64,000 nucleotides of DNA. Origin: Vermamoeba vermiformis. Taxonomy: Eukaryota. Where the stretch lies: NCBI GenBank assembly GCA_045837725.1, contig JBEWZL010000163.1, positions 1-64,000 on the forward strand, given 5' to 3'. Below the pieces are notes generated by a model, which saw only the letters and a program-made list of their open reading frames with translations, ran no database searches and had not been told where the DNA came from. Shown here piece after piece: positions 13,897 through 38,465 of the stretch. The translations under genes and the position numbers were made by a program. Each line of letters starts with the position of its first letter. The first letter of the stretch is position 1.

Positions 13897-15435
13897 TTAC
13901 TTGTACTGGGCAGATTGATAGTTCTCCAGCAATATTTTGCTTTCAATGGACGTTGTAAATTTAGCATGGACCTGGTTTCTTGCTTTTGTGTATTTTAAGT
14001 AATCAAAGTATTGCCAAAATTCATCTGATGTCATATATGTCACTGCGTAAAACCATTTCCGTCCTCCAACTTGAAAGGCTTTTTGTTCAAGGGCCTTTTG
14101 ACATTGCAAAGTATTCTTTTCTTCAGCTGCAATCCCATATATCCCAATATTCAAAAAAAGAGTGTCATTGTTATTTGTTGGGTAAGGGAACAAATTGCGA
14201 CTGGCAAACTGTTTGGGGGAGACAACTGGGCACAGCCACAAGGGATAAACTGTTACATTTTCATCAAGGTAATCAATAAGCTCTTTTGCTTTTGATATGG
14301 GAACATAATAGTCTTGAACATATCTTGTAGTTTCCCGATACTCATCTGTGTTTCTGAAAATCTTGTTGATAATTGATCCAATGTAAAACAAGCTAGAGGC
14401 AGTACTAATCTTGCCAAACAGCAACCGACTCCACCATGAATGAGGAAAATGGTATGAGGCTATCCAAAAGCATCCTAAAGTATAAAGAAAGAATAAGTTT
14501 GGAACTTTCATTCTTGATTTACCTCTATCGTAACGGAAAAGATACTCCTCAGTTTTCATGAATACTTTTTGTCCAATTTTCTGAATCCTCCAAGCAAACC
14601 ATTGAGAAAACCACCACTTTTGAGATATTGTTTCTGAGCCACCATTCTTTGATGTAAATTTTCCATCAATTATAAGAATCTGGTTCTTGTCATACTGGAT
14701 GGCATCCAGAAAATCAGAGCTACTGTCTTCTGATTTGGATTGAAGAATGTTGATAGCAGATTGAACATCCCCAAATTTTGTTAAAGTTAATTCAACATAG
14801 GGTTTTGCTTCCATAATTCTGAACGTAATGGAAGTTATTATTCCTAGTGTATTGAAAGATCCTGCAAGAGAGTAAAAGAGCTCTTCATTTTCATTTTGAG
14901 AAACTGTGAGTAATTCTCCATTATAAGTGACCAATTCATATTCCAGGCAACAACAATGAAAAAATCCATGCCTTTGTGCAAAGTTAGAATCACTATAAAT
15001 ATTGTCATCTCATTACCTGAAGCTGCTACTTTCAATTCCAAGCCCATTGACTGCCCCACCTAATGTTATTTCTCCGAACTCAGGAATGACAGCAGGGCAG
15101 AAGCCTGCCTTTAAAAGTTCCATGGTAACCTTTCTGAATGTTATGGATGGCTCAGCGACACAAACCATTCTTTGACTGTCAATTTTTAAGACACTATCCA
15201 AGTTGGATACAGGAATTTTTGTACTTTTCGATTTGTAAGTTAATGTTCTTAATGTGTGCGCCATTGCTTGGGTTCTACTGGTAGTAACAGACTTGTTCTC
15301 TGAGTATGCATTTGCTGCAACCCTTCTGATGATTTCCACTTTTTTTGAGTGTGGAATTTGGTGCTTAGTCTTTCCAAGTACATAAGTAGTAAACCAAATT
15401 CCAAATATCAATATTAAAATGCCTTCAACAACCAT
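13897..15435 (-). CDS. Delta(24)-sterol reductase-like FAD-binding oxidoreductase (2 introns)
   Basis: PAVIPEFGEITLGGAVNGLGIESSSFRHG, LAGSFNTLG, EYLFRYDRG, YPLWLCP, GGRKWFYA motifs of the DHCR24/DWF1 family; introns ~15016-14972 and ~14522-14475. Confidence 0.88.
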
Positions 15436-16122
15436 TTTTTTGCATGTACAAGACAAGATTAATCTTACCCTTGAACAAAAATATTCAAACAAAAAATATT
15501 TTCTAGTTAAAATAATAATCAGATTATATTCAGCTGATTATCAGAACAGAAACATATCGTCCCAAAAAAAGCTATATTTTTTGGTATCTAAAAATTTGAT
15601 AAAGCCGTTTTAGTTTTGGGAGTTGACTAATTAAGATGTGGTAAATGATGTATTGATTAAGTAGTTTGATGCAAACCAGGAATTTTTAACAAGAATAATT
15701 GTGCTGAATAAATAAATTTGAGTGGAGAAGATTCTTTTGAACTACTACAGACTGGGTAGGTAATCAATTCACAGCAAAATCTGGAAGCTATTTTCATCAT
15801 CTTGCAAAGCCAATGTGGGTGGGAAGAGTTTTCTTTTACTGCAAGCTAACACTGAGATCTGTCCTTATTCCGGTCAGTTAGACTTTGTGACATTAAAATA
15901 AGGTTTGAGGGCTTCAGTAGTTTGGCATGCCAAGTTAGGAAGTATTTCTGGGCCTTTTGTTCACTCAAACACTGTTTTAAAGAGAAGTTGTAAAAGAGAA
16001 GTCATCCAAAATGATGCCAGTGGTTTATGAAAATAGACAAATTTACTCAAAGAAAACAGCATTATAATGATACAATACAAACAATTTGTGCTGGCCAACC
16101 TGCTCATACTTGAAGAAAATTT

Positions 16123-17152
16123 CTAAATTGATAGAATGTACCAGAATAAAGGTTGAATAGCCACAGAAACAAGTTGTGCTTCAGAAAATAAGCCTTTAAT
16201 GTAACGCGGACGAGCGCTGCTAACTCGGAGCCAATCACTTCCAAATCGCCATACAGTGTACAGTTCCAAAAACAAAACAAACTTGTTCACTATAAAGATT
16301 ATCAGACTATAACAATTTATACTATTTCTTACCATCTAAGCTTGAATGGTACAGAAAAATTGCAGTGATAAGGGAAAAAAGAGCTTCAAACAGTTGAACC
16401 GGAAAGACTGCAGCTTTTGGCTCATCTCCACAGCTAAATCTGCGTAAAAGCCCGTTGTATACAAAGAAAATGCGCTGTATGAGGTTAGCAAGGTCAACAC
16501 AAATAACATTAAACTACCTTTGGGTAAAAAACTCCGTATCTAAAATTCTTTCCAAAACAACAGCCACCAAAGAGACAACCTAGCCGAATAAAAACCAAAG
16601 TGGTTGAGAAATTGACCCCAACTACATCCCAAACAGCATTAGGCATCTTTTGCAGTTTGAAGAGAAGGTACATGCTGGGAATCAGAAAACAAAATGTATC
16701 TTGCAAAAATGATCTGGACTTCATACCAATAAATCTCTTAAATACCTAGGAGTTCTTGTAAGACAATGATTATAAAACTGAAGGTCTGGTACCTGAAAAA
16801 CTTCCATAAGAAAGTAATTAACAACCCAAAAAGTTGCATTATATTGAAGAGCTGATACAGTCAAAGCCCATTTTTGAATGTACCAGTATGATACCAAAGA
16901 ACCTACTAAAAAGCCCATATCAAGAAACACAAAATATGGGTGAGTAATTCCACTCAGCAGTTGGTGAAGTAAGAATATGCTGTAACCAAACTTCACACTC
17001 ATTCTTGAAGGTTTTTCAATGTTTTCCAAATCAGCAGTCCCTTCATGCACATGAGAGAAGACAAGTTTCTCAAAACGGCGTTCAGTTAGTGGTCCAAAGA
17101 CTGGTGATGGGACAGATGATAGAGTTGGAACCTTTAAAACTGGATTTGACAT
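16123..17152 (-). CDS. Prolipoprotein diacylglyceryl transferase (Lgt)-like membrane protein, 3 introns
   Basis: Spliced motifs IRLGCLFGGCCFG, FPVQLFEA, YTVWRFGSDWLR, SEAQ match Lgt-family signatures; multiple hydrophobic helices. Confidence 0.7.
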
Positions 17153-19885: not shown

Positions 19886-20452
19886 TTATTCTTTCTTGTT
19901 GCCATTCAAGCGCTCAATGAGTTGCAGCGTGTAGTCCTTGTTTTGTCTCACTAACTCTTTCAACTCTTTGAGAATTGTTTCGATCTGCTCAGCCATCCAT
20001 TTTCACTTCCATTTGGTTATCTTTTGAGGATTTCAATATATATTAAGCATCATAGTTTCAATATCCACCAGGAGGATTTTTTGAAGTTATTAGATCTGGT
20101 TTCACTTCGGACACTTCGCTCTTAATTTTTTTCTTTCCATCAAGGTAGTTGTTCAACCATTCATTGCACTTCTTTAAGTCCCAAACCATAGTAGTATTGA
20201 TCTCCATAATGTTTATGGTAACAGAATGAGCTGGAGCAAGTCCTTCAGGGTCAGAGTTGAGGTCAACAATTTTAACGTTTGCATGGGAGCCATTTGAAGT
20301 CCTGTAGATAGCTGTGACATCCCACCAAACATCAGAAGCCTTTGCAGCAAAAATCCTCACTTGCATGCCAGGGGTTGGTTTGTGTGTTGTTCAAGAATGA
20401 CCCAATGGACCGGCAGATGTAAAAATAAAATATTTGAAGCTTACCAACTCAT
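19886..20452 (-). CDS. Hypothetical small protein (model uncertain)
   Basis: 102-aa ORF 20058-20366 plus plausible flanking exons; no recognisable motif. Confidence 0.35.
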
Positions 20453-20483
20453 TGTAAAATACTGCCCTAGCTTATACCAACGT

Positions 20484-20580
20484 ACTACCTTATTAGAAGT
20501 CAATATCCTGAGTTGAGCGAATTATTTGGATGGGTGTTAATTTTTGTTTATTTTTCATTATTTTTTTGGATGTGAAGTCT
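20484..20580 (+). promoter_or_regulatory. Most complete copy of the cluster-wide upstream element (AATATCCTGAGTT...TTAATTTTTGTTTATTTTTCATTATTTTTTTGGATGTGA)
   Basis: Related copies at ~19812-19857(-), 21714-21780, 23290-23340(-), 25128-25162, 29395-29443 (weak), 30764-30808(-), 35828-35868. Confidence 0.65.
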
Positions 20581-20631
20581 TGTATTTTGAGGAATAAGCA
20601 GAAACTATTGTGTTAGCTTTTTGGTTCTAGG

Positions 20632-21393
20632 ATGGCAAAGGTAGCAATTCTTGTTCCTTTTCGTAACCGGCACCAGCACCTTCAAGAATTTCTTCCATTG
20701 ATGGAGCAGTTTCTACATGCTAAACAGATAGATTTCAAAATTTTTGTTTTAGAACAAACGGTAGGCAAGCCATTTAATCGTGGTAAACTTCTAAACTGTG
20801 GTCATGTTGAAGCTAAAAAAGAAGGCTGGAATTATTTGATCTTTCATGATGTGGATACTATTCCTATTGACCCCAGTTTGAATTATGGACCACCTGTCAC
20901 AGCACGGCAAATATATGCCCCTCATGATAATTCTCTGGGAGGATTGGTTGCTGCTATTAACCCAGAATTTTTTGAAAAAGTGAATGGTTTTTCAAACGAA
21001 TACTGGGGTTGGGGTTATGAAGATAATGACTTGAAAATGCGCTTCCTTAATTGCGGGATTGTTCCAGACTATTCTGAGACAAGGTTCAGGAAAGGAGAGA
21101 AGGATCCAGAAGAAATAAAGCAAACTAAAGAGAAGGATGGGTTCATGCAACTTGGGCACATTCACTCCTTTTTTCAAGAAGTTAAAGAAACAGAGGGCAT
21201 TGATATATCCCAAGAATCACTGGAGGTTTTGGAAAAAAAGTTTGATAGCACCAACAAAACACAGCATACTCTAGAAGATTTTAAAAGAAATTCGGAAAGG
21301 CAATGGCAAAGTGGTCTAAATACCCTCAATTATCGTATTGTTTTGAGGCAATTTGTATCGGATAAAACTGAATGGCTACAATTGGAAATTTAA
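20632..21393 (+). CDS. Glycosyltransferase family 7 (beta-1,4-galactosyltransferase-like), intronless, no TM anchor
   Basis: AILVPFRNR, FNRGKLLN, FHDVD, GFSNEYWGWGYEDND. Confidence 0.9.
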   Translation: MAKVAILVPFRNRHQHLQEFLPLMEQFLHAKQIDFKIFVLEQTVGKPFNRGKLLNCGHVEAKKEGWNYLIFHDVDTIPIDPSLNYGPPVTARQIYAPHDNSLGGLVAAINPEFFEKVNGFSNEYWGWGYEDNDLKMRFLNCGIVPDYSETRFRKGEKDPEEIKQTKEKDGFMQLGHIHSFFQEVKETEGIDISQESLEVLEKKFDSTNKTQHTLEDFKRNSERQWQSGLNTLNYRIVLRQFVSDKTEWLQLEI

Positions 21394-21821: not shown

Positions 21822-22909
21822 ATGGCTACCATACGCTCTATCAAAGAAACTGATGATCTTTCTACTGTTTCAACAGTAAGTGCTAAGAAAAAAAACAAAC
21901 TTTCTCACTTCTCATCAGCTCTTGTTAGAAGCTTTTAATGGTGACATTAGTGTTTCTATCGCAAAAAACCTTGTCAATGCATTCAGAAATTCTGGGCTTA
22001 TTGCAATTGAAGATTCTTCAGGGGAGATTATTGGTTGCACGTTGTTATCCGGCCCAGACAGTAGGTGTGAACGGTAGCTACTTTAGTACTAAAACTGCCA
22101 CAGATGATGTGCGTTCAGTGATTGTAATTGCAGTGAAAAAAAGTGTTTGTGGGGTAGGGAAATTGCTTTTACAAGAAGCAATCGCCAAAGTAAACAGAGA
22201 GAATTGTTATAGACTAAGTGCAGTTGTGGTAAGGAAATCTGCTTGGTTTTAAGTTTTTAATGTTGCAAAGGAAGCATCAAATATTCGTTCTCTTGCACTC
22301 CATCTGAAGATGGGCTTCAAAGTTAGATATCCAATTGCAGAAGTGAAAGTACCTAGGATTACCATAGAGGAAGACCCTACTTTTACAGTTCGAAAAATGG
22401 TGTACGGTGACATTCCTCTCCTAGCAGAAACTTGGAATGCAACATGTGGATACTCAATGAGAGGAAACTTGGAGAAGGCTGTAATGAGCTCAATTGAACA
22501 TGACATCTGTCATCAACCACTTGTTGTGGAAAAAGGTACAATACTGTATTGACAGTGATTTAATTTGCTAACTTAAAAAGGAGGAGAAATGTGTGGATTT
22601 TCCCTAGGAGTGAACTTCGCTTCGGCAACGATCGTCAAAGATTTACAATCCCTACAAGCTCTGTTACAATTTGTTACCCAACATTGTTCCGCATCTCTTG
22701 TTCCAACTTTATTGGTTCCTTTGTCTGCTGGTCAAGGTGCGTATTTTCCCCAAATGTTGGTGCTCTACAATCTAATCGCTGCAGTTTTACAATGGATGCT
22801 TGGAAAAAAGTTTGAGATTGAAAAAACTTTTTATTTACTGGCTAACAAAGAAGATTTCTATAACCCATCAAATGATTGGCTGTTTTTTCCTTCTGCATGT
22901 GGTTGGTGA
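21822..22909 (+). CDS. GNAT-family N-acetyltransferase (tandem-GNAT-like, multi-exon)
   Basis: IRSIKETDD start, IAVKKSVCGVGKLLL acetyl-CoA motif, SLALHLKMGF; second GNAT-like half TVRKMVYGDIP. Confidence 0.72.
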
Positions 22910-23432
22910 AGTTGGTTAGAAAATTCTGTGGTTCCAATCACTACTTTGAGCTTCAGTTGAGAAGAAAAAAAAAACATTAATGCATGTGAAGAAAACTTAA
23001 AACAAACAACAATTCACTGCTTGTGCATCAATCTGTGAGTAAGGATTTGAAATTGCTTAAATTGATTTTAACATAAAAAGTAATTTTGTTCCCATTCCCA
23101 ACTTATGTTCTTGAGTTTGAGAACTACAGGACTTATTCAATGGTGAAGCAGTTATCCTAACGCAATCTCATCGGACTGCCAGATCTGCCAGTACAACTGG
23201 CAATTGTAACCAATCCTTAATTGATTAGTTCGGAAATTCCGTGTAAGATCAGTTGATTTCTGTTAAATAGCTCATAATAATTTAATATTCACATCACATC
23301 CACCAAAAAAATAATTGAAAAAATAAACAAAAATTAACCCAACCAACCAACCAGTCAGGCTGTCTGAAAGTATTAAATTTCATTTTATTTATTGAGTAGG
23401 CCAGTCACTTACAATATAAACTAATAGTTGCA

Positions 23433-24188
23433 ATGTCCCACAAGTTAGCAATTGTTGTTCCTTACAGAGACAGACGTCAGCACTTGGAAAGATTCATCCC
23501 ACATTTCCAGAAATTTTTCTTGGGCTCATCCATTGTCTATCATATCTTCATAATTGAACAAACAGACTCAAAACGCTTCAACAGAGCTTCGTTATTAAAC
23601 ATTGGGTGTAAAATAGCAATGTCTCAAGGATTTGACTATTTTGCACTCCATGATGTTGATACTCTGCCTTCTTCAAAAACTATTGATTATTCTTACCCTC
23701 TTTGCCCCAGGCACTTATATGGTCCAAAAACCACAGCAGGGGGTGTAATGTTGATAAATTCTGCCGATTATCTAAAATGTAATGGAATGTCTAACAAGTA
23801 TTTTGGCTATGGGAGAGAAGACTTTGATTTTAGAAAAAGAATGGAAATAGTTGGTCTTTCATTTGATCAGTCTCAACACGTTGAACGTGTTGACTCTAAT
23901 GAGCAGCATGAAATAGAAGTTTCTGGCTGGATTTTACTTCCTCATAAGCACTCTTTTTTGTACAATGAGGGGAGGTTTACTCCTGAAGAGATTGCTGCCC
24001 TTGAGAACGGAACAGAAGGTTCAGACTTTGTGATCGAGCGTTTCCAACAGTCTGACAATTGGATTGTTTTTAAATACTTTGAGGAAAATCCTGACCTTTT
24101 CAAAGAAGATGGGCTGTCATCTCTTTGTTATAAAGAGATGTTTATGTCTACTCAATCTAATGTAACAACAGTAGGGGTCGAACTCTAG
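23433..24188 (+). CDS. Glycosyltransferase family 7, second paralog, intronless
   Basis: AIVVPYRDR, FNRASLLN, LHDVD, GMSNKYFGYGREDFD. Confidence 0.9.
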   Translation: MSHKLAIVVPYRDRRQHLERFIPHFQKFFLGSSIVYHIFIIEQTDSKRFNRASLLNIGCKIAMSQGFDYFALHDVDTLPSSKTIDYSYPLCPRHLYGPKTTAGGVMLINSADYLKCNGMSNKYFGYGREDFDFRKRMEIVGLSFDQSQHVERVDSNEQHEIEVSGWILLPHKHSFLYNEGRFTPEEIAALENGTEGSDFVIERFQQSDNWIVFKYFEENPDLFKEDGLSSLCYKEMFMSTQSNVTTVGVEL

Positions 24189-24650: not shown

Positions 24651-25040
24651 TTATGATGATGATGCTCGAGAAGAGGAGAGGTAATCTGTTGATGAAACAC
24701 CCATTGGTAACAAGCTGCTTTTTGGGGTATACAAAGCTAGCACAAGAAGAACAACAATGCCAAGCATAACTGTTCCCCAGATTGCAACTAAAATTACAGC
24801 CTTTCGTTGTGGCACTGCATCACCCAAATGTGGCTTTCCGAGGCAGATCCCAAGAGTAGCGTTACAGTAAACATCAGGTATCTTTGTAGCCAACAAACAC
24901 GATTCATCTTTCACACAAGGACTGCACGTATTTTGAACACACTCAGCTGCAAAAGCTTTGCAATCAGATGAAGATGAGCATGTTGGAAATGTAAAAACAA
25001 GAGGGAATAAGAAAAGAGTCAGCAACAGAGAGTAGTGCAT
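24651..25040 (-). CDS. Small Cys-rich type I membrane protein
   Basis: Signal peptide, 8-Cys ectodomain, one TM helix, short tail. Confidence 0.65.
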   Translation of the reverse strand: MHYSLLLTLFLFPLVFTFPTCSSSSDCKAFAAECVQNTCSPCVKDESCLLATKIPDVYCNATLGICLGKPHLGDAVPQRKAVILVAIWGTVMLGIVVLLVLALYTPKSSLLPMGVSSTDYLSSSRASSS

Positions 25041-25250
25041 TTTTAATCAAAAGACCAACAAAAAGTCAAGTGCAGAAATCCTGTTGTCCAAAACAGCAAG
25101 AAATATTTAAAGTTTGTAAACAAAAAGAATTTTTGTTGGTTTTTCAATTATTTTTGATCTGAATACCGTTGGAAAACAGATATTAGCAATTTTTCAGAAA
25201 AAAAATATTTGTTTTGTTAGAAACTGATGCAATTACAAACACTGCAGAAA

Positions 25251-26658
25251 ATGCATAACTGTTACATTTTAGTGCTTTTCTCCCTTATTGGCCTTGGAAG
25301 TGCGTATATGAACATTCAGAGTTCAGTCTTCAATGGAACACTTGCATCATGTAATTGGAATACCAAGGAAAACTTTACTGGAGTTATGTTTAATCCATAT
25401 TCATTGCTGGGTTACTCCAATATTGTTTTTTTGCCCGCTACATTTGGACTGTTAGATACTATAAAGAGCTTACAACAAGGTTTTCTGCCACAGGCTATTG
25501 TGCTAGTTAATCTCTTTCCAGGACCTCCTGGTTACGATCAACTTTCTGCATTTAAAATTGACGACTACAATATTTCCGTACCAATTATTAGTGTGGAATC
25601 AGTTGCCCTTGACATTTGGCTTAAAATAAATGGAACTGACACTGCACTTGCGGTAGAAATTTTTTATGGTAAAAATGGGGGGGTTATTTTCACTATCTAA
25701 CTTTTCTTTAGAGCCTAATCCCTGGATAGAAGTATCTCAAAGTGGTGGTTGGTACTTCTTGAACTATCTTTTAGTTGCAATTTGGGTGGCAGCCCTTGTA
25801 CTGGCTATTTGGCGCTTGGTTCAATTTCTGAAGGCACTTGGATGGAGGTTTTCAGTAGCTGTTGTTAGTTTAGTACTTTGTGTGGTGAACTGCATAAGTA
25901 ACTAGAAAAGATACTTACTCTTTGCTTAATTAAAATAACCATTTCCTCCGTAGTGGACCTTGCATGGTGGGCTCCTGATCCAGCTTGGAGTGGCCGAGCA
26001 TACACAGCAGACATTCAGCTTATCTTTTTGACCCTGTCTATGTGCTTAGCAGTTGTAATTATTTTGATTTCCACTGTTTACTGGTACGTCTTAAATAATG
26101 ATCCCTTTAGAGAGACTAATCATACATTACAGGCATGAGCTAATTTCTTTAGCTGGAATTCAAGTTAAAACCTTTATTACTCAATTCCGTGTTCCTTTCT
26201 TGGTTGTATCCATTATTCTTCTCTCCTTTGAACTGGTGATAGAAGTTTTGAACACTGCACTTGGAGCATCGTTGTTTGTATTTCAAGTGAACATAGCATA
26301 CACTGCAACACTTGCAGCTACTGCTGGTGGAACATTCATTTACATTATCGTTGTTACCATCATGGTTTCAAAATACTTTAAAAAGAAAGGAGGAGATATG
26401 GAACGTGCAAAGATGACAACCATTCGCATGATTGTAAATATTTTTGCATGTGCACTAATGGTTGTTGCAATTATACTTGCTCTCAATAATCAAACAACTA
26501 CTCCCTGGGGAATGAAATACTGCTACTTCATTGGACATTTAGGGGCAGCAATTGGCACTTTAACAACTGTTTTAAGTGTGCAACCTCCTGCTAAATCTCA
26601 ATTAAAATCTACCACCGCTACTTCCATGGGTTCTAGATCAATCAATTCGAACAACTAA
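25251..26658 (+). CDS. Signal peptide + extracellular domain + multi-pass (7TM-like) membrane protein, 3 introns
   Basis: Four consecutive ORF pieces joined by short GT-AG introns; EPNPW before about seven hydrophobic helices. Confidence 0.65.
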
Positions 26659-27066: not shown

Positions 27067-28815
27067 TTATTGAGTGTTGCTTCTATTACGAATGGATTCT
27101 GTTTTTGGTGGCTGTTGAAGCTTAAAAAGACTTGCAAACATTCCTTCCCTCTGCATTAGCTCGCTAAATTTACCCTGTTCAACAACTGATCCTGAATGCA
27201 ATACATAAATGTTGTCACACTTAATAACAGTGTTTAACCTGTGAGCCAAAATTAAAACAGATATTCCGAGTTTTCTCAACCCAATAATTGTTTCTTGCAC
27301 TTGGCGTTCTGCAATCGCATCCAATGCACTAGTTGGCTCATCCAAAAGTAGTAACTTGGGTTTTCTTAATAATGCCCTTGCTAAAGCAACTCTTTGTTTC
27401 TGCCCTCCAGAAAGCGTGGTTGGTTTTATGAAAGTTTTGTATCCTTCTGGTAACTCCATTATAGCATCATGAATTCCGGCTAGTTTAGCAGCATACTCTA
27501 CGTCATTGAGGGAGAACTCTGTAGCCCCAATACAGATATTATCTTGCAGAGTACCGGAAAAAATAAATGGCTCTTGAGGTACATATCCAATGTTAGATCT
27601 TAGGGTGTGTTCTGGAAGCTTCTTAAGATCAACACTTCCAAATGTTATTTCTCCTTCATAATTTTTATAAAAGTTTAACAGCAAACATATAATTGTGGAT
27701 TTGCCTGCTCCACTTGGTCCTACCAGAGCAACAACATTTCCTTCAGGAATACTTATAGAGACCTCTTTTAGAACTTGTTGACTTGAGTTCTTGTACTTAT
27801 AACTAATTGCATTCATTTCCAATGAAAAGTTAGTCAAATTTTCAATGTTTTCTGCAACACCTTCATTGGCATATTTAGTTCCTTCAATAGTGCCAAAGAA
27901 AGTTAAGGCAGCTTTTGATGCTCTGGTAAAATCCATGACTCTTATTGATAAATTCCGTATAACAAAATTGCAATTAATGACTGCTGTAACTAGCACTGAC
28001 ACCTGGCCAACAGTATTTTCTCCTTGTGACAGGGAATAGTAACCTAGCCAGGCCACCAAAACACAAACACCAGTTGAAAAAAGAGTCACCACTGAAGTTG
28101 ACATTGTTTGAATGCTTATGACTTTTCTTTCCACATTTTCCAACTTTTTTAGCTCTTCACCAAATCGAGAAGCAATGTCACTCTCAGCTGAGAACGCCTT
28201 CACTGATTTGATACCATTCAATGTTTCAGGAACAACAGAGACACTTGAGCTTAGAGCATTAAACCTTTGTATTTGAAGCTTTCCAGCTTTTCGTTGTGGA
28301 AACAGAGCAACAAAGAATACAATTATACCAATTCCTAAAACCACAACTCCATATTTCCAGTTATAATAAAATAACAGTATTACATAATACACAACATTCA
28401 AAGCTGCCACTGCAACCACTGGAACTGAATCTTTGGTGACATTTGCAATTACATCAACATCATTGGATATCGATGTTACCACACGGCCAACTACTTTTGA
28501 CTCTAAATCTTCCAAGCAAAGTGATAATAATGTAGTAAGCATGAATGCTCGAAGTTTCAAGGCCAGTTTGGAAGCATAAGAGCTAAAAATTAATAGAGAA
28601 AAAGACGAAACCAGAACAGAGAGTACCGTGTATCCAGCAAACAGATACAAGGTTATGTAAACAGCTTCTGTGGATACGCTTAGAGCGTCTATGTACATTC
28701 CAATTATGAAGGATAATCCAGGTAGAAGGGCTCCATTCAGTAGAGTTATACCTCCTCCTACTGCAAACAGAGATTTATTGGTATAAAGCGAGTAGGCTTT
28801 CAATAACCGGGTCAT
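27067..28815 (-). CDS. ABC transporter, ABCB-type half transporter (TMD-NBD), intronless
   Basis: GPSGAGKS, LSGGQKQR, LLLLDEPTSALD, AHRL; N-terminal TM domain. Confidence 0.93.
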   Translation of the reverse strand: MTRLLKAYSLYTNKSLFAVGGGITLLNGALLPGLSFIIGMYIDALSVSTEAVYITLYLFAGYTVLSVLVSSFSLLIFSSYASKLALKLRAFMLTTLLSLCLEDLESKVVGRVVTSISNDVDVIANVTKDSVPVVAVAALNVVYYVILLFYYNWKYGVVVLGIGIIVFFVALFPQRKAGKLQIQRFNALSSSVSVVPETLNGIKSVKAFSAESDIASRFGEELKKLENVERKVISIQTMSTSVVTLFSTGVCVLVAWLGYYSLSQGENTVGQVSVLVTAVINCNFVIRNLSIRVMDFTRASKAALTFFGTIEGTKYANEGVAENIENLTNFSLEMNAISYKYKNSSQQVLKEVSISIPEGNVVALVGPSGAGKSTIICLLLNFYKNYEGEITFGSVDLKKLPEHTLRSNIGYVPQEPFIFSGTLQDNICIGATEFSLNDVEYAAKLAGIHDAIMELPEGYKTFIKPTTLSGGQKQRVALARALLRKPKLLLLDEPTSALDAIAERQVQETIIGLRKLGISVLILAHRLNTVIKCDNIYVLHSGSVVEQGKFSELMQREGMFASLFKLQQPPKTESIRNRSNTQ

Positions 28816-29479: not shown

Positions 29480-30676
29480 ATGAGGACAGTAATCAACTAC
29501 TCAGCAACGAAATTAAAAGCAGCTCTTGACAAATTATGCCAAGATGAGAATGTTTGCCCCCAAAATATTTTGTACATGACGCTTGGAAACTCTCTACCAC
29601 ACATTATTAGAGATTTAAAAGAGTTTGGAACAAAAGGATTAGTTGTAATTAATGACTTTGAGAAAGAACTAGCCATGCTAATAGGTATGGGCTCAATAAT
29701 ACCAGTATGATGATAACCCTGAACTTAGGATGGCAGGAGTCGGACCTTTACGATTTTGCCCTTGTTCAAAAATCAGCCCCCAGGTTTCCCTGTTATGATA
29801 GTTTTAGGTGCTTTGAAGGAGAAATGTTGTGTACTGGATACAATATGGCTGCAAGCTCGTTTGGTACTGCTTTTTTAAGTTTGCAAACATTAATTAGTTG
29901 GTAGATGCACGCGTAGAAGTTTTATATTCAAAAAGATTAAACCAAAGAAATTACTGGTTTGGCAGCGGTAAGTCTCTCTATTATTATTACACAAAACTAA
30001 CAGAAAAAGATGGATCTGTGCTACTGGGGGCATGCAAGACTGCAAAAATCATCCTTGATGAGGTATACAAATAACTTGATTTATATTTAATTAAATATAC
30101 ATCAAATCTCAGGGTAATGATGCAATTTGTGGTCCGACATGCTACACTGGTGACATTCAACCAAAACTGTACAATATAGAAGGTACTATTATGTTTGTAA
30201 AACTGGTTTAACCCCAATCAGGCAAGACTTTCTTCTCAGTTCAGGCAGTAGGGTATTTCTCAACATGTTTTGGAATAAGATTCAATGGTAAAGAGATTCC
30301 AGTAATTGTAGGTAAGCAATGTGAATCACCAAGAACTCAATCCCTACTATAGAAAAACGAGAAAAATGAACAATTGTCCACTAGACTCCCTTTTTTGTAT
30401 CACATGATTTCAAGATCAATCTTGAGCAACAACGACAATGAAGATGTACATCTTACCAATTTGCAAGATGTGATGGATTTTCTTGACAAATTATGTGGAA
30501 CTCAGTTCCATATTGTCCACATAATGGTAGTTAATGGAAATAGTGAAGATAAGCAAAGGCTATCAGTAAGGAGGTTCATTGATTTTAGTGGAGGTTGTTT
30601 GAATTTGGTAGTTAACATGACTGGTTTACTCCGAGTAACAGCAATCTTGAAGCAAATTACAGTGCCAAAATATTAA
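29480..30676 (+). pseudogene. Degenerate ornithine/diaminopimelate decarboxylase-like gene
   Basis: ILYMTLGNSLPHII (PLP Lys position lacks K), ICGPTCYTGD, GYFSTCFGIRFNGKEIPV; in-frame TAA ~29938 in my splice model. Confidence 0.55.
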
Positions 30677-31877
30677 ATGAATAAATAAATTAGATGCACT
30701 TTTGATTAAAATCAAATACCAGCGTCCTTAGCAATAGACCATCTAATCAATAACAATCAAGAAAGACTATCACAATCAAAAAAATAATGAAAAATAAACA
30801 AATATTAAGCTTGGGACTAAGGAAATCTTAAAACTCATCCCCACTACTGAAGCACTATATTCACTTGAATTACAGCTACAGATCTGTTTTGACGAGATTA
30901 ATTTCTATAAATTTGAATAACATGACATTATGCACTTGTATAGAGTTGTTGACCAATATAATTGTACATTTTGATGGTTATTTTGTTGTGGTAGTGATAA
31001 AAAATCTACCCCAAAAATTTATTCACGCTTATCGCGGCTTCTGTCCTCAATCCTCATCAATTATCAAGCAATTAATTAAGATTATCATTCGATAATTATA
31101 ATAATATATAAAGAAGCATAATTTATCAGTTTACTGGGAGTTTAATATTTTGAGGGTATTTTGGTGAGTATGCACTGTCTTGTCAAAAAAAAATGGTGAA
31201 AAAAAAATTCTATCGCTGATTTGAATTTGCTTTCCACTTAAGTGGATACGTGAAATTTCATTTAATGTTATTTGTAACTCTATGTTATGATTATGTGGCG
31301 AGAAATTTCCTGCTGGTCACATGTTTTTTACTTATTTGTAGGCAAGTTAAAATCGATTTAACTGTTAGCCTCCAATTGCTTTTTTTTTTGGGCAATTTGG
31401 AAATTAAGATTAATTTAAAGTAATTAATTAAATGGTGCGTGTTTGGAGGCAAATACTCAAACTTTTTAATATTTCAATTGCCTTAACTGGGAGAATGCAA
31501 AAGAGATATAACAGTATCCTTTGAGATAAGAATGTATAGATTGTTATCTAACTATAATAATTGAATGGATAGTGTATAGTTTATTTGTTCTGAATCAATC
31601 AAATAAGGTGTAAATATGGTTATATTTATAGTGTTGTGAGCCGAGATTAAACTTGAGATAAGTAATATCCTTAATCACGCCTGCTTCAGAAATTTTTTAA
31701 ATTAATTAAATGTACGGGAAAAATGATTAGCTCAAAGCAGTTGATAATGTGCTGTTAGAAAGGGGTTGGCAAGAATCAGCAGAACAGTATACAATTTTAT
31801 TCAATGCGATAGACAGTTTAACCAATGCCACAAATATGAAAAATTTAGGAGGCTCTTAAAATTTGTCTTGTCATCCA

Positions 31878-32789
31878 CTAAATATTTTCTCCTTCAAATC
31901 CAGCCAAGCACAGTATTGTTTTTGTGAAGTACTGCTTTTCTAAAGGTTTTTGAGTGAACTTAGGAAGCTGAGTAACCTCAGGAAAGTAGGATGTTACTTC
32001 ATAAATTTCGTGTGGCAGATGTGCAGTCATGGCACCACTCAAAAATGCCTTTCTCTTCTTTTCTAATTCTTCAGGTGAGGCAAAGCTACGAGGTGTCATG
32101 CATATGTACAAGCCTAGCCTGATCCCTTGAGGAATAATGGGCTCTTGACCCCAGTGAACTAATCTACTATCCCATAAGACAAAGTCTCCTTTTTTGCACC
32201 GCACTTTAATGGCAGGCGAATCAGAAAAGAACTTTGCAACTTCTTCACTGGAAAACATTTTGGTCCGAGAAGCTGTTCCATAGAATTCCCCATTGGAAGA
32301 AAAAAGGAAATCATGTTTCTTGTGGGACTTGGGAATTACATAAGTCCCTCCAGCTAATTCAGCTTCAGAGTCAGTTAAAGCAAGAAAGCCTTGTACACAT
32401 CCAAAGCCTGGCTTTGTTTGGTCAACATGTGGCCATGCCGGTCTAGCCTCTTCTGGCAATCTTGGGACAGCAACATTGCACCCATCAAAGCTCACTAGCA
32501 AGTCCTCTTCCGCAATATTCCATATTTTTGCAAAGATTGCCATAACATTTTTGTGTGTTCTTGCCTGCCACATGAAATTTTCATGACCAATGGAATGATT
32601 TAGTACCCCATATGCATAGTCAGGACTCAAACTTCTCTTCCAATCCAAAGGATCCTGGGTAATATTATATTTTGATTCTAAGTATTGCCATAAACAACCA
32701 GCAAAATAATTCACTTCTTGTTCTGTCAAAACAGATTGTACAACTGTAAATCCATTATCTTGTAAATCTTGCAAATGTCCACTGTCCAT
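31878..32789 (-). CDS. Phytanoyl-CoA dioxygenase (PhyH)-family Fe(II)/2OG dioxygenase, intronless
   Basis: NGFTVV, WPHVDQ (HxD), KGDFVLWDSRLVHWG, R..LYICM. Confidence 0.9.
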   Translation of the reverse strand: MDSGHLQDLQDNGFTVVQSVLTEQEVNYFAGCLWQYLESKYNITQDPLDWKRSLSPDYAYGVLNHSIGHENFMWQARTHKNVMAIFAKIWNIAEEDLLVSFDGCNVAVPRLPEEARPAWPHVDQTKPGFGCVQGFLALTDSEAELAGGTYVIPKSHKKHDFLFSSNGEFYGTASRTKMFSSEEVAKFFSDSPAIKVRCKKGDFVLWDSRLVHWGQEPIIPQGIRLGLYICMTPRSFASPEELEKKRKAFLSGAMTAHLPHEIYEVTSYFPEVTQLPKFTQKPLEKQYFTKTILCLAGFEGENI

Positions 32790-32917
32790 TCTACAAATTG
32801 TTAAGGAGCAGAAAAATAGTTCACTTGAGTCAACCTATGATTTCCGTATTTCAGTAAACAAAAAAAAAACCTGCAATCAGGCTCACTGGAAGGATTTTAT
32901 TTTAAAACCAAAAAGAG

Positions 32918-33667
32918 ATGACAACTCATTTTGTTGTGGTGGTGACAGCTTATAACTGTGAGAATTACGTTGAAAAGGTTATTTCCTCTATTGGAAGCCA
33001 GAAATATGCCAATTTCGAGATAATATTCATTGATGATGCAAGCACTGACAACACGTATGCAAAAGCAAAATGCTTGGCCCTGAACAACATACACCTGCAC
33101 CAGAATTCGTCACGACAAGGCAGAATTTCCAACATAGTCAAGGCAGTTTCAACATGCAATGAAAAATCTGTTATTGTTCTAGTTGATGGGGACGATTTCC
33201 TTGCTGGTCCTGAAGTACTCTCAAAGCTGAATGAGGTGTACACAACGAAAGATGTATGGATGACTGTTGGAGGGCATGTGGTTGACCCTCCAATGGATTA
33301 CCCACCTGTAAAATATAATTTGTACTACTCTGCTGCAAATGACCAAAAAAGGAATTATAGGGACACAATATGGACTCAACCACACCTGCTAAGTTTCCGA
33401 GCCTCATTGTTTTGGAAAATAAATGACAAAGATATGAGGAATGAAGATGGGACATACATTACTGTTGCCACAGACTGTGCAATGGTGTGGCCAATGTTAG
33501 AAATGTCCAATGGAAGATACTATTCCTTTGTAGGGGAAGTTCTTTACAAATATAATACAGTAAATCCTCTAAGCTTACACTCTAAAGAGGAAAGGCGTAG
33601 AGAGCAGGTTGAGATGGAGCAGCAATTAAGAAAGATGAAACGTTACCCTCCCCTCGATAGTTTGTAG
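32918..33667 (+). CDS. Glycosyltransferase family 2, intronless
   Basis: VVTAYNCE, IIFIDDASTD, LVDGDD. Confidence 0.88.
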   Translation: MTTHFVVVVTAYNCENYVEKVISSIGSQKYANFEIIFIDDASTDNTYAKAKCLALNNIHLHQNSSRQGRISNIVKAVSTCNEKSVIVLVDGDDFLAGPEVLSKLNEVYTTKDVWMTVGGHVVDPPMDYPPVKYNLYYSAANDQKRNYRDTIWTQPHLLSFRASLFWKINDKDMRNEDGTYITVATDCAMVWPMLEMSNGRYYSFVGEVLYKYNTVNPLSLHSKEERRREQVEMEQQLRKMKRYPPLDSL

Positions 33668-33988: not shown

Positions 33989-35641
33989 ATGTCATGGGTG
34001 TCCTCCGTTCCTTCCCACTTATTGAAGCAAGAAACTCCTTTTTATCTAATATCAACTAGGGATTTACAGAAAAGAGTCTTACAATTGCAAGCAAGCTCAA
34101 TTCAACTTTATTACCCCTTAAAGTGCAATGCTACATTATTTCTTCTGAAAACTTTAGCTGATTATGGGACTGGGGCAGGTAATTTTGTGCACTAGTCATC
34201 ATTTGTAACTAATGCTTAAAACACCAAAGACTGTACTGATATTTCAGAGATTGACTTGGCTCTGGCAGCTGGATTCAAGCCTAAAAATCTCCTGTTTAAC
34301 TCAGTGGACTTTAACTTGGGAGCCGTGAAATTCATTTTAGAGCATGAGGGCATTGTAGTTGTAGACTCTGAAAAGCAGTTATCATTGATGCATGCTTTGC
34401 CAAAGGAACTTATAGATCAGGGGAAAATTCTTCTTCGGTTAAATATTGATCCCTCCATGAGTCATTTTGGTCAACAGATGGAAACATACATTGAATACTT
34501 GGCTTTAAATAGTATGTAAACTACACCCATATTTGATTTAATTGTAAGTAGATGTAAAGATCAGTGGGCTGCACTGCAGTACGGGAAGTGATATTACATC
34601 TATTGACCATTTTGAAAGTGTAATGGAAAAAATGGAAGAGGCAATTTCTTTGCTAGGTTTGATAAGTGTTATTAAACCAGGACTAACGAATAGAAATAGA
34701 GCACAAACTTGGCTACAAAATGACCACATTGGACATTGGCGGAGGTTTAGGGGTAAATGTGCAATCGTTGGATGATGATTTATTTGACAATTACTTGCAC
34801 ATTGTCCAAAGAATAGCATCCAAGTATCATTCAAAAATTTCTGTACTATCTGAGCTTGGGCGGGCCTTGGTAGGCCCTTCAATTGGTAAGCACCAACCAG
34901 TATTATTGCTAACTTTGCAGCCCTTTTTTCAAAGGTACTGGACATCAAAGGGCAACGCATACTTTGCGACAGTAAGTAAAATTGCAAAAAGAAAGAGGAT
35001 TAACTATAGGGCAGTTCCAGGAAATGCAGTTTTAGCAAAAAATGCAATGCCTTTCAAGAGTACAACAAATTCCATTGTGTTAAAAGGAGACTATAGCTTA
35101 ATATGCAGCCCTCCAAATACTGTTTACTCTAAAATATGTCATCAAGTGGAATATTTACCAGTTGGAAGCTTGATTTATTTTCCATTTTGTGGTGCGTATG
35201 TTCATGCACTACAGGGTGACCTGGCAGGAGTTGGAGGCCCCCGGATGGTAATTGCAAATCGTGTTATGGCAGTAAAACTCATCTTTTTTGTAGATTCATC
35301 TTGAAAGTTGTAGTGTTGTGGATGAGCCATACCTTTACTACCACCCAGATTTGGTGGGCTTGCACTCTCTTAACAGTTTTTCATTAATGTCTCCCAAGGA
35401 TATGTACATTGAGCTGGATCATGCTTTCAGCCATCCCAAAGATTTTTTGGAGAAAACATACCAATTAGGAGGAAGAAATCTAACTGGTGCAAAACTGGAA
35501 GGTTTCCATTTCTGGGAACATCCAACTAGTGAAGTCCTGAAATCACAAATGTGCATACTTATACGAGGAAATTTTTTCTATTCTTTATATTGTGGAAGTA
35601 ATAGTTTTGGAAATGCTAAGTTCAAACTATCTACGATGTGA
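33989..35641 (+). CDS. Fold-type III PLP decarboxylase (ornithine/diaminopimelate decarboxylase-like) with C-terminal extension, multi-exon
   Basis: ETPFYL, YYPLKCN (PLP lysine), LLRLN, GLHC, LDIGGGLG, SELGRALV, CGAY. Confidence 0.82.
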
Positions 35642-35905
35642 CTTGCTGGAATTTGATCTGACCAAGGAATAAATAATCCAAGGCCTCCTTATGATATTTG
35701 AAAAAGACGCAAAACTTATGACTCAAGCAAATTATTGATTGTGCATAATATTGATTTTTCATTTCATGGGTCAATTTTTGTTGGATTAAAAAGATACAAG
35801 CCTATCACTCCTAACAAAATGAATAAAAATTTTTTTTATTTTTCCATTATTTTTTTGGATGTGATGTAGTGGCTTGATTGTTCGTATCTGTTATTTGAAA
35901 GAACA

Positions 35906-37357
35906 ATGTCCCGACTTGTTGTAATCCCATTTTTAGTGATACTGTTACTGCCTGCAGTGTCTTTAAAGCCAACAATTTATTTTACAAGCCCAACTAATTC
36001 ATTCAGTCATTTTCAACCAACCTTTTATCTGTTGCAAGAGCTTTGCCATGCAGAGTGGACCTCCAATTTTAATTTGGTTTTAGTGGCTCACTTGACTTTT
36101 AAAGATAAAGCTAACTGCTCCAGTTTTATTGAGTCAAAAGTAATGTGGCCAGCTGATCTTTTCCCTCAGGAGTTGCCTTACAGTGAAACAGGTAACTGTT
36201 GCAATTCCTTAAACAACCTGACTAAAAATTCATTCAGATGATGAAGATAGCTTTGACTTTTCAAAATTTAGTCATGTTTATGCGGAAGAATTTCATTTCT
36301 TTCGCCAAGTGTTTATGCAGGTTAGTCACAATGTACAATTCTAAACTCATTCTAACCACGATGATCAAAGTCTACAGAGGAGGATATTGCAGTAATTGAT
36401 TCATTTTCTTTTGGTGCATTGGCTGCAGCAAATGAAAAAGGAATGAAAATACTTTCACATGCTCCTACCACCCTCTTTGATGTTTCTTATCCTTGTTTTC
36501 ACGTTGATTCTCCAATGTTTGATTTTCTATTGAATCCTGTTGCATGCTGGCTTCTGTACAGCTCACGAAAGTCTAGCTTCAAGGATATAATTGCTGAGTC
36601 TGGTCAATCTTTTAGTTTCCTCAGTCAAGCAGACCTTCATGTGAGATACAGTACTTCGTGGTTTGAGTCAACTGAAGATTGGAGGCATCCATATATGCTA
36701 CAAATGTCCCCAATATTTTATCATACACATGCAAAAGGAAGAGGAAATGGAATTCTTATTAGCTTTGGTTCAGCTCTTCACCCCAGAGAAAAACTGCAAA
36801 AAATAGTGTCAGATTCTTTACGCCAAATTCCATCTAAAAAAGTTTGGATTTCACAGTTACCATTGTTAAAGGTTACTGAAGGTGCTGGAATTCATGAAGT
36901 GAGATGGTCAAATCAAAGAGAACTGCTGTGCTCAGGAGACTTTGGAGTTTTTATTACGCATGGAGGACACAATAGTATTATTGATGCTCTTTATTGTGGG
37001 GTACCTATTGTGGTGATTCCATTAAATTTTGATCAGTTTGACAACGCAAGGAGAGTGGTAAAAGAAGGTTATGGACATGCATTCGCACGAAACAACAGAA
37101 ATTCAACAGAGCTTGCTTTGAAGTTAACAAGCTTACTTAGCAATCCACCATCAATCATCCAGGATGTTAGTAACAGGTTGCAACAGCACCCCTTAGGGCA
37201 AGTCGAAGCGGCCACAGCCTTGCAGAAGTTGGTATTTGGCAGAAGCAGCAAATCTCCTGTATTTTGGCTTTTGGACGTCTTTATAGTGTTTTTGGCCTTC
37301 ACATTCTGTACTTTTTCAGCTCTCACAATGATAATGTGTTTTAAACATTATAAATAA
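35906..37357 (+). CDS. UDP-glycosyltransferase (GT1; signal peptide and C-terminal TM like animal UGTs), 2 introns
   Basis: WSNQRELL...FITHGGHNSIIDALYCGVPIVVIPLNFDQ UGT signature. Confidence 0.88.
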
Positions 37358-37505
37358 CAATTTGATGGAATACATGATGTTATGTAGAAAGTAGACAAAT
37401 GAATTGTTCAGTCCACTCAACCCACTTCCATTTATTTGAAAAAAATATATATTTTTCTGGATAGTTTGACAGTTGAGAGCAGTTCTTTTATTTATTACTG
37501 GAATA

Positions 37506-38465
37506 ATGAATATGGCTGCATTTTTGGAGAACCAAAGAGATCTCATTCTTCAATTCTTCAAAAAAAACCTAGCCAATGTAAAATATGTTTGCATTCCAGA
37601 CCCACCCTGGTATGAAAACAAAGGAGATAGTGCCATTTACCTTGGAGAAATTGCATTATTGGAAAAACTTGGGATAGAGTTAGTTCCGTGGGATGATTCA
37701 AGAGTACAACTAGTATTGCTAACTGGAGGTGGAAATTTTGGTGACCTTTGGCCAGATGTTCATTTGGCTAGGAAGATTTTCATAAAATTTTTAGCTGATA
37801 AGCCAATCATTATCGCACCTCAAACGGTGTTCTACAGAAACAGCTCTACACTTGCTGATGATGATTCATGGCTGAGCAAGACCCTCAATTCTAGTTTTCT
37901 TTTTTGTGTAAGAGATGAACGGTCCTTCACAGAAAGCAAAAAATTCTCTGCAGCCAGTGCACATTTGTTACCTGATATGGCCTTTATGCTGGATGTCCCA
38001 CAGAGCCTAACCCCACCAATTTATGATGTAATAGTTCTAGCACGCACTGATTTGGAACAATCTAATGCTGGCCTCTGGGAGAGCAAAGAAATCCTTTGTC
38101 AAAAGTTTAATGAACACGGAATCTCATATTTCATCACTGATTGGAGAGAACCGACAACTGATGAGCCATGTTCTATGCAAGATCTCTTTCTTAATCCTGC
38201 TAAAATTGTTGAACAAACAAAACGGTTGGCCAAGAACAGGGTGGATCATGCAATTGCATTGCTATCCAAAGGCAAAATTGTTTTAACAGACAGACTGCAC
38301 GGCCACATATTGGCAACATTAATAGGCAAAAAGAACATTGTTTTAGATAACAGCTATGGAAAAGTTTCAGCTTATATCCAAAAATGGACTTACTCCAGTG
38401 AGGAAGTTCGGTTGGCCACCTCTGTTGAAGAAGCTGTTTCTGCAGTGGTGAAAGAATTGATTTAA
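37506..38465 (+). CDS. Polysaccharide pyruvyl transferase (EpsI/Pvg1-like), intronless
   Basis: NKGDSAIYLGE, GGGNFGDLW, PQT, VRD..S, PDMAF, TDRLHGHILA. Confidence 0.9.
   Translation: MNMAAFLENQRDLILQFFKKNLANVKYVCIPDPPWYENKGDSAIYLGEIALLEKLGIELVPWDDSRVQLVLLTGGGNFGDLWPDVHLARKIFIKFLADKPIIIAPQTVFYRNSSTLADDDSWLSKTLNSSFLFCVRDERSFTESKKFSAASAHLLPDMAFMLDVPQSLTPPIYDVIVLARTDLEQSNAGLWESKEILCQKFNEHGISYFITDWREPTTDEPCSMQDLFLNPAKIVEQTKRLAKNRVDHAIALLSKGKIVLTDRLHGHILATLIGKKNIVLDNSYGKVSAYIQKWTYSSEEVRLATSVEEAVSAVVKELI

Follow-up and report, generated by a model that had tools for sequence, protein, structure and literature searches.

Plants and fungi have well-described metabolic gene clusters, which are rare in other eukaryotes. 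Here we describe a block of enzyme genes from the eukaryote Vermamoeba vermiformis, located in a 64-kb stretch of contig JBEWZL010000163.1 (assembly GCA_045837725.1, positions 1 to 64,000 of the forward strand). We refer to this whole stretch as the window, and all coordinates count from its first nucleotide. The block spans 24.6 kb (13897-38465), is sharply bounded, and is called the island below. An initial annotation of this DNA had proposed that the block makes a glycosylated, pyruvylated and possibly aminated sterol or lipid. We favor another reading, to which we give a probability of roughly 0.4: the block is a true gene island of a eukaryote, and its core would serve as one pathway that assembles a glycolipid or lipid-linked glycan at a membrane, much as bacteria and large viruses do. 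The product of the island is probably a decorated surface lipid or glycan. By analogy, the nearest known logic is that of giant-virus glycosylation clusters and bacterial exopolysaccharide clusters.

Bacterial exopolysaccharide, capsule and O-antigen clusters (EpsO, EpsI, PssK, WcfO; ATP-binding cassette (ABC) transporters of the MsbA/PglK type) share with the island soluble GT2-type transferases and an ABC half transporter. They also share a pyruvyltransferase that depends on phosphoenolpyruvate (PEP) and works at the cytosolic face, and the nearest relatives of the island's pyruvyltransferase are found among these enzymes, which, in the account of PMC6801904, act on lipid-phosphate-linked sugars with PEP as the donor. 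Unlike the bacterial clusters, the island is eukaryotic and interleaved with spliced genes. It is without a priming phosphoglycosyl transferase, polymerase, chain-length or nucleotide-sugar genes, and it adds GT7 enzymes, a cytochrome P450, a UGT of the endoplasmic reticulum (ER) and a DHCR24-like enzyme. The glycosylation clusters of the Megavirinae, as presented in PMC10117803, comprise 6-33 genes that include glycosyltransferases, a pyruvyltransferase (L143, Mg538), an acetyltransferase and an oxidoreductase. The island has a similar enzyme mix, and soluble GT7 proteins are common in large viruses. The island differs from the viral clusters in having no viral core genes, and no second gene is held in common across the 89 GT7 loci described below.

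Plant saponin and steroidal-glycoside clusters, to which the initial annotation had likened the locus, resemble the island in their co-located non-homologous tailoring genes (P450, UGT and possibly an acyltransferase) and in a hint of shared regulation. Unlike them, the island has no scaffold-forming cyclase, and most of its transferases are soluble GT7, GT2 and pyruvyltransferase enzymes rather than UGTs. We found that the plant analogy fits worse than cytosolic-face glycan assembly of the bacterial or viral style, given the soluble GT7a, GT7b, GT2 and pyruvyltransferase proteins and their viral and bacterial relatives. Pyruvylated glycoconjugates are known from just a handful of eukaryotes, according to PMC6801904. 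In the Pvg pathway of Schizosaccharomyces pombe, as outlined in the same source, a galactosyltransferase acts first and Pvg1, a Golgi-lumen enzyme for which PEP is imported, then pyruvylates the beta-galactose (beta-Gal) caps. The island has a homologous pyruvyltransferase and galactosyltransferase-like genes; unlike Pvg1, its pyruvyltransferase has no signal or membrane segment, and its galactosyltransferases are of the GT7 family. Bdelloid rotifers are an example of a small freshwater eukaryote that, as at this locus, carries prokaryote-like biosynthetic genes; the acquired genes described in PMC11258130 are of an antibiotic-synthesis type, whereas the island has neither a non-ribosomal peptide synthetase (NRPS) nor a polyketide synthase (PKS).

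A bounded island of enzyme genes

We scanned 31 stop-to-stop open reading frames (ORFs) from 12 to 40 kb against Pfam and found a family at E ≤0.01 in 12, with 8 above the curated cut-off. A second Pfam scan covered 79 smaller ORFs, an NCBIfam scan the 26 main ORFs, and scans of the flanks a further 37 and 78 ORFs. The initial annotation's picture of co-located enzymes held: by Pfam and HMM matches, the 24.6 kb contain no fewer than 11 distinct families of enzymes or transporters, and the block contains at least three adjacent non-homologous enzyme genes, as a eukaryotic metabolic gene cluster does. The four glycosyltransferases (two GT7, one GT2, one UGT) and the pyruvyltransferase that had been named at the outset all scored above their Pfam cut-offs. 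Together with three oxidoreductases and an exporter, these five sugar or pyruvyl transferase genes lie within the island. The whole window has six such transferase genes, the other 39.4 kb contributing only a GT49 gene; with five of the six inside 24.6 kb, the concentration is therefore not a chance pattern of the window. As had also been noted, the Pfam scans of block ORFs found no PKS, NRPS, cyclase or housekeeping family inside the block. Catalytic motifs were readable in GT7a, the P450, the UGT, the ABC transporter and the pyruvyltransferase, and the block enzymes mostly look intact.

The block genes contain GT-AG introns of mostly ~40-65 nt, seen in three-frame prints, and the DNA is therefore eukaryotic. 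Six genes are intronless (GT7a, GT7b, ABC, PhyH, GT2 and pyruvyltransferase), and intron number per gene ranges from 0 to ~11. Three spliced models (DHCR24-like, Lgt-like and ODC-like) were checked independently, and the P450 and UGT were spliced by eye only. The GC content is 0.32-0.38 at ~12-38 kb, compared with 0.37-0.52 outside. At third codon positions (GC3), all block genes have values of 0.29-0.41, intronless and spliced alike, and the exons of a flanking UCH gene have 0.33-0.43. Composition as a mark of recent transfer was ruled out by this likeness of GC3 in intronless and spliced block genes.

Soluble glycosyltransferases and a pyruvyltransferase

Both GT7 genes have a single exon and encode soluble proteins. 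GT7a (20632..21393, plus strand; ORF 20617-21393) is beta-1,4-galactosyltransferase-like, matching Glyco_transf_7N (E 2.8e-26) and 7C (E 6.5e-14). Its best PDB matches were B4GALT1 and B4GALT7 (E 5e-25); the DVD and WGWG-ED-D blocks align, and the acceptor and donor blocks of B4GALT1 are kept. The alignment with the catalytic domain of B4GALT1/B4GALT7 begins at the third residue of GT7a, leaving no stem or anchor. GT7b (23433..24188, plus strand; ORF 23400-24188; 7N 1.5e-22, 7C 2.5e-12) is 33% identical to GT7a; its family assignment comes from Pfam and the alignment to GT7a only, the block alignment with B4GALT1 being that of GT7a. The type II Golgi topology of animal GT7 enzymes was not found in either protein. 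Both start at the catalytic domain and have the short soluble form that predominates in virus-rich clusters. The nearest Atlas clusters of GT7a consist of short GT7 proteins, of which 76-95% are viral and mostly from Nucleocytoviricota; this is a lead and not a tree. An alignment search with GT7a and GT7b gave nine viral loci (30-41% identity) and 80 metagenome loci (33-49%), the latter being 80 of 390 relatives from 593 stretches.

Those of the GT7 loci that we inspected were glycan clusters of viruses. At L005, the GT7 gene is beside a giant-virus capsid gene and a GT25 gene. A phage-like contig with PhoH and dUTPase (L051:5570-19780) carries a glycan cluster in which a short GT7 accompanies two GDP-mannose dehydratase-type genes, a GT2, a GT10 fucosyltransferase, two sulfotransferases and a methyltransferase. 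In viral or metagenome loci L001:1827-12926, L012:6722-9438 and L016:2722-5573, two to three tandem GT7 genes are fused to Laminin_G_3/ConA-like domains and adjoin radical-SAM/SPASM arrays and a methyltransferase, which makes up a recurrent viral module.

The GT2 glycosyltransferase (32918..33667, plus strand; ORF 32906-33667; Glycos_transf_2 8.9e-21) is also soluble and encoded by a single exon, and its best NCBIfam models were EpsE, PgaC and TuaG, each far below cut-off. The UGT, a GT1 family member (35906..37357, plus strand; three exons read by eye; UDPGT 1.4e-17 on ORF 36365-37357), has a different layout. The signal at its N terminus and the membrane segment at its C terminus make it ER-lumenal in type, and its best PDB matches were the C-terminal domains of human UGT2B (E ~1e-15). 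Signal and membrane segments are absent from GT7a, GT7b, GT2 and the pyruvyltransferase, each of which begins directly at its catalytic domain.

The ketal-pyruvyltransferase (37506..38465, plus strand; ORF 37470-38465) is a soluble single-exon protein matching PS_pyruv_trans at E 4e-26, with a Pfam score of 93 bits against a cut-off of 25.3. Aligned with 10 relatives, it shares 44 columns that are invariant with the window protein included, and it matches the solved structure of fission-yeast Pvg1 (5ax7) at E 3.3e-29. Its best 120 relatives are 30-37% identical; the named ones are bacterial EpsO, EpsI and PssK or stand under bacterial species names, and no eukaryotic relative or self-match occurred among these 120. 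Viral relatives were confirmed in two of 13 candidate stretches at 28-30% identity, more distant than the bacterial ones. Water-metagenome runs contained 36-43% of the sequence words of the block. A water-metagenome run (X3) covered 28 of the 30 bins of 18501-38500, with 36 of 44 pieces at least 99% alike, and in this run a second haplotype spans the pyruvyltransferase gene. This haplotype has 24 changed codons, 15 synonymous and 9 non-synonymous, the latter mostly conservative. With these codon changes, we conclude that the pyruvyltransferase is under purifying selection in nature.

Two features of gene order in this part of the island were also recorded. PhyH and GT2 are divergently oriented across a common 128-bp spacer (32790-32917), and GT2, the ODC-like gene, the UGT and the pyruvyltransferase are arranged in tandem, separated by ~320, 265 and 148 nt.

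A shared element upstream of three genes

We identified a ~45-nt element with five copies in the 64-kb window, all of them inside the island. Three copies lie 33-48 nt 5' of start codons: those of the P450 (19801..19847, minus strand, ~45 nt upstream), GT7a (20538..20584, plus strand, 48 nt) and the UGT (35827..35873, plus strand, 33 nt). The 13-nt core of the element, ATTTTTTTGGATG, has three exact matches in the window compared with 0.01 expected, all sense-oriented and 5' of these same genes. At GT7a and the UGT, the element takes the form of a 40-nt direct repeat (family D12) immediately 5' of the gene. A matrix built from the three sites recovered two further copies, one of 27.6 bits (30761..30807, minus strand) and one of 23.5 bits that is inverted and ~100 nt upstream of GT7b (23288..23334, minus strand); the next best site in 64 kb scored 11.9 bits. 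The former has no convincing ORF downstream and the latter no downstream ORF on its own strand; a convincing minus-strand gene was found downstream of neither. We take the element as an initial hint that the P450, GT7a and UGT genes may be regulated together, and as such it is a directly testable candidate regulon.

The element itself contains an ATG (20560-20575, 35849-35864 and 19813-19825 on the minus strand). In the GT7a and UGT copies a TGA follows directly, making a start-stop mini-ORF, and the P450 copy has a five-codon ORF. If transcribed, such a mini-ORF could be a translational control element.

ER-anchored and soluble oxidoreductases

The DHCR24-like flavin adenine dinucleotide (FAD) oxidoreductase (13897..15435, minus strand) has three exons and an N-terminal membrane anchor. 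FAD_binding_4 matched its first exon at E 8.5e-5, below cut-off (exon ORF 15013-15537, minus strand). Its introns lie at ~14972-15016 and, as a 48-nt in-frame segment, at ~14475-14522; this in-frame GT..AG segment matches exactly a 16-residue insertion that 13 homologues lack. The end-to-end alignment with 13 relatives has 36 invariant columns. The initial annotation had called the protein sterol C24-reductase-like, and the full-length DHCR24-like similarity stood (37 matches, E down to 6.6e-42, several automatically named delta24-sterol reductase), but identity does not exceed 33% (25-33%), and the 37 matches included no characterised sterol reductase, although the word-based search may have missed such enzymes. 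A cluster look-up of 10 of these matches returned no names. Prokaryotic relatives were found in 91 of 123 stretches. The 80 loci kept, 23-32% identical, belong to Patescibacteria, Chlamydiae, Myxococcota, Planctomycetota and Woesearchaeota (DPANN archaea); neither Patescibacteria nor DPANN archaea are known to make sterols.

The cytochrome P450 (17840..19757, minus strand) has ~12 exons and an N-terminal microsomal-type anchor. Its single-exon Pfam match (p450, E 1.1e-3 on exon 18374-18625) is below cut-off. Reading the three-frame print by eye, we found introns of mostly 40-65 nt and one of ~165 nt, and the usual P450 motifs (I-helix, ExxR-type motif and Cys-ligand loop) were legible across the ~12 exons, in agreement with the earlier assignment. 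The Fe(II)/2-oxoglutarate dioxygenase named there is a soluble, single-exon PhyH-family protein (31878..32789, minus strand; ORF 31878-32834; PhyH 7.5e-11), for which PDB sequence and NCBIfam searches gave no match.

Transporter and accessory enzymes

The predicted ABCB exporter was confirmed as a half transporter of 582 residues with six transmembrane segments and a nucleotide-binding domain (27067..28815, minus strand; single exon; ORF 27067-28875; ABC_membrane 1.4e-35, ABC_tran 6.2e-34). Walker A, Walker B and signature motifs could be read in the translation. The best NCBIfam model was the lipid flippase MsbA, at 320.6 bits and below its cut-off of 602. Relatives are ~23-37% identical, and their ranking, dominated by full-length two-half transporters, is uninformative on origin.

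The remaining enzyme-like genes are more divergent. The Lgt-like gene (16123..17152, minus strand) encodes a multi-pass membrane protein of 298 residues spliced from four exons. Pfam LGT matched exon 16509-16745 at E 4e-4 (20.2 bits, cut-off 24.9), and NCBIfam gave E 1.7e-3. Against a hidden Markov model (HMM) of 15 bacterial Lgt proteins with Z = 20000, the spliced protein scored 36.8 bits (E 3e-9) only with all HMMER filters off and was not reported under default filters. The alignment is colinear over exons 2-4 (positions 126-244 of 263), and in the aligned GN..N.E block several of the conserved polar residues are replaced. An exon search of PDB gave no match, and Lgt was not found in the three genomes reached via loci. 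The earlier Lgt-like label thus survives on the spliced-protein match but falls short of the Pfam cut-off.

Of two ornithine decarboxylase (ODC)-like genes claimed previously, one was upheld. It encodes a divergent fold-type-III pyridoxal phosphate (PLP) decarboxylase-like protein (ODC/DapDC) of 463 residues from seven exons (33989..35641, plus strand), with colinear Orn_Arg_deC_N matches on three exons (E 0.07, 1.9e-4 and 3.6e-7), ORF 34687-35304 being above cut-off and ORF 34220-34519 below, and with a match to the lysA model. The spliced frame is open and colinear with an HMM of six bacterial decarboxylases (23.2 bits, E 3.5e-5). The lysine-bearing block aligns, the C-terminal domain has no Pfam match, and the usual Cys-bearing block was not seen. 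The other is probably the gene at 29480..30676 (plus strand), which has no recognised family and a resemblance seen by eye at the level of motifs only. As a second ODC this gene was rejected: it had no Pfam or NCBIfam match, no tblastn similarity to the ODC-like gene at 33989..35641, and no match to the small decarboxylase HMM in a search of 2063 window ORFs of at least 20 residues. The GNAT assignment fared poorly. The gene (21822..22909, plus strand; ~5 exons by eye) matches Acetyltransf_1 at E 0.078 (13.7 bits), below cut-off, and has an apparent +1 frameshift near 22050-22075, which could be that of a pseudogene or an assembly error; metagenome depth in X3 is zero over 21836-22502.

Relatives elsewhere and RNA data

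We searched the 89 viral and metagenome GT7 loci (909 kb) with the 18 other block queries at E 1e-5 and found no homologue of any. In 82 further loci (1.07 Mb), 80 of them with prokaryotic DHCR24-like genes, only a generic ABC gene recurred, in 10 loci. The conservation of neighbourhood that the initial annotation had offered as a check was thus not seen among the GT7 or DHCR24-like loci, the generic ABC gene apart. Single-protein scans of viral contigs (GT7a, ABC) and of metagenome contigs (PhyH) returned no close relatives. Three RNA runs under the same species label as the best-matching DNA run (~13 million records each) gave 37, 37 and 9 reads on 18501-38500, of which 36, 37 and 9 were only partial fits at poly-A/T; this mapping had no flanking-gene control, and the counts carry no information on expression.

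A model for the island and its alternatives

In the pathway that we favor, three oxidoreductases (P450, DHCR24-like flavoenzyme and PhyH-type dioxygenase) would modify a lipophilic acceptor in the ER membrane. The GT2 and the two GT7 enzymes would then add, on the cytosolic face, a short glycan ending in beta-linked Gal or N-acetylgalactosamine, and the pyruvyltransferase would cap the terminal sugar with a pyruvate ketal from cytosolic PEP. The ABCB-type half transporter would flip or export the product. The lumenal UGT may add a further sugar after flipping or act on something else. An amine, an acyl group or a lipid anchor could come from the products of the PLP decarboxylase-like, GNAT-like and Lgt-like genes. 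A common substrate, the order of steps, the acceptor and the product are what we infer. The pyruvyl donor PEP is cytosolic, and the combination of an ER-anchored P450 and DHCR24-like enzyme with soluble GT7a, GT7b, GT2, pyruvyltransferase and PhyH proteins and an MsbA-like half transporter fits assembly, capping and flipping at the cytosolic face. If the island does encode one pathway, a eukaryote would possess lipid-linked glycan assembly of the bacterial or viral cytosolic-face style together with an ABC flippase, and the locus would open eukaryotic pyruvylation to genetic study. Such islands would escape cluster finders that look for PKS, NRPS or cyclase cores. A more specific version, which we regard as unlikely, is a hybrid pathway under a cluster-specific element, in which virus-type GT7 enzymes, a bacterial-type pyruvyltransferase, a GT2, an MsbA-like flippase, the Lgt-like protein and native ER enzymes (P450, DHCR24-like, UGT) would make, at the cytosolic face and with the ABC transporter as in bacteria, a pyruvylated surface glycolipid, anionic in the manner of sialic acid.

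Several observations weigh against a single pathway of this kind. The uneven intron load argues for stepwise assembly rather than a single transfer. The topology is mixed, with a lumenal UGT and the other transferases cytosolic, and the Pfam scans found neither a nucleotide-sugar synthesis gene nor a scaffold-forming enzyme in the block. The gene at 29.5-30.7 kb is unrecognisable, the GNAT-like gene carries its apparent frameshift, and the loci searched for synteny kept no neighbourhood beyond the generic ABC gene. The upstream element was found post hoc and counted within the 64-kb window only, and since two of its five copies are without a downstream ORF, it could be a small repeat and not a promoter.

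In the main rival, bacterial- and viral-type genes acquired independently, together with fast-evolving native genes, would have collected as an accessory island in a permissive, repeat-flanked region and serve no common pathway. The affinities are indeed mixed: the pyruvyltransferase is nearest to bacterial EpsO, EpsI and PssK and GT7a to viral clusters and loci, Lgt is a bacterial family, and DHCR24-like relatives occur in Patescibacteria, Chlamydiae and Myxococcota. The range of intron numbers suggests different ages, the flanks have a piggyBac-type transposase, tandem repeats and a duplication, and the other loci searched gave no synteny. Bdelloid rotifers are reported to have regions similarly rich in foreign genes, and PMC11258130 records horizontally acquired biosynthetic genes in them. 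We nonetheless hold this rival to be doubtful, as the functions are not a random draw but include five glycan-building transferases and an exporter, the upstream element is common to the native-looking P450 and UGT and the virus-like GT7a, GC3 is uniform across intronless and intron-rich genes, and the pyruvyltransferase is under purifying selection. Were the island merely such an accretion, it would still show, within a short stretch, foreign-type genes that have gained introns in a eukaryote. A viral source for the whole block, as the remnant of an integrated giant or large DNA virus that had carried a glycosylation cluster, seems very improbable. The lower GC content than in the flanks, the six intronless genes, the Nucleocytoviricota-dominated clusters nearest to GT7a, the giant-virus capsid gene beside the GT7 of L005 and the pyruvyltransferases of Megavirinae clusters (as given in PMC10117803) would suit a viral origin. 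None of the window ORFs scanned was a viral core gene (capsid, polymerase, packaging ATPase or others), though, and intronless and intron-rich genes of the same GC3 are intermingled. The pyruvyltransferase has fewer viral relatives (two loci) than bacterial ones, and they are more distant, and no viral locus carried a second block gene.

Two further readings start from the P450, UGT and exporter, and we consider both improbable. The saponin-like pathway of the initial annotation, in which a sterol is oxidised, glycosylated, pyruvylated, perhaps aminated and exported, draws on the invariant blocks that the DHCR24-like protein shares with named delta24-sterol reductases, on the element common to the ER-anchored P450 and UGT, and on the presence of an exporter. 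Its sterol product depends on one distant DHCR24-like protein, whose relatives include those of Patescibacteria and DPANN archaea and whose matches included no characterised sterol reductase, and Pfam scans of the block found no cyclase, sterol-forming or other sterol-pathway gene. The UGT is nearest to animal ER UGT2B and not to sterol glycosyltransferases. Amination likewise hangs on one divergent PLP decarboxylase-like gene, the second ODC being absent and the GNAT weak. The same P450, UGT, N-acetyltransferase and ABCB exporter could instead be phases I, II and III of a xenobiotic-defence cluster adjoining unrelated glycan genes. The microsomal-type anchor of the P450, the animal-type topology of the UGT with UGT2B as its closest match, the ABCB-type transporter and the element shared by P450 and UGT agree with such a role, but the same element precedes GT7a, the GNAT-like gene is weak and apparently frameshifted, and defence would leave the two GT7, the GT2, the pyruvyltransferase, the Lgt-like and the decarboxylase-like genes without a role. 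Taken together, we conclude that membrane-associated glycan assembly as one pathway is the best explanation of the island, at the probability given above.

Flanks and other features of the window

Three further candidate genes inside the block matched no family above cut-off. A small Cys-rich protein that carries a signal peptide and a single membrane segment (24651..25040, minus strand) was read from the translation and has no Pfam or NCBIfam family, and a multi-exon, multi-pass membrane protein (25227..26658, plus strand), also read from translations, has no Pfam family above cut-off. A 110-residue ORF (20061..20390, minus strand), without a family in the Pfam and NCBIfam scans, is a candidate gene only.

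Outside the block, little was recognisable beyond four flank ORFs with families. These are the GT49 exon (45577-45861), an eRF3-like GTPase gene (48153-49534, plus strand), an open 403-residue ORF for a piggyBac-type transposase (55664-56875, minus strand; DDE_Tnp_1_7, E 3.7e-11) and the UCH protease (57617-58530). The eRF3-like gene has a GC3 of 0.62, well above that of any block gene; among proteins of 670-2000 residues, to which its search was confined, its best identity was 45%, to a mixture of fungal, plant and unnamed entries. Neither Rfam nor tRNA scanning gave a match in the window. GC-rich tandem arrays lie to the left of the block (8792-9660 and 10353-10694), with units of ~41 nt and ~37 nt and further array units of ~47 nt, and the GC peak of 0.52 is due to them. 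The right flank contains a direct duplication of ~390 nt (41570-41960 and 43627-44017), whose copies are 85-96% identical and spaced 2057 nt apart.

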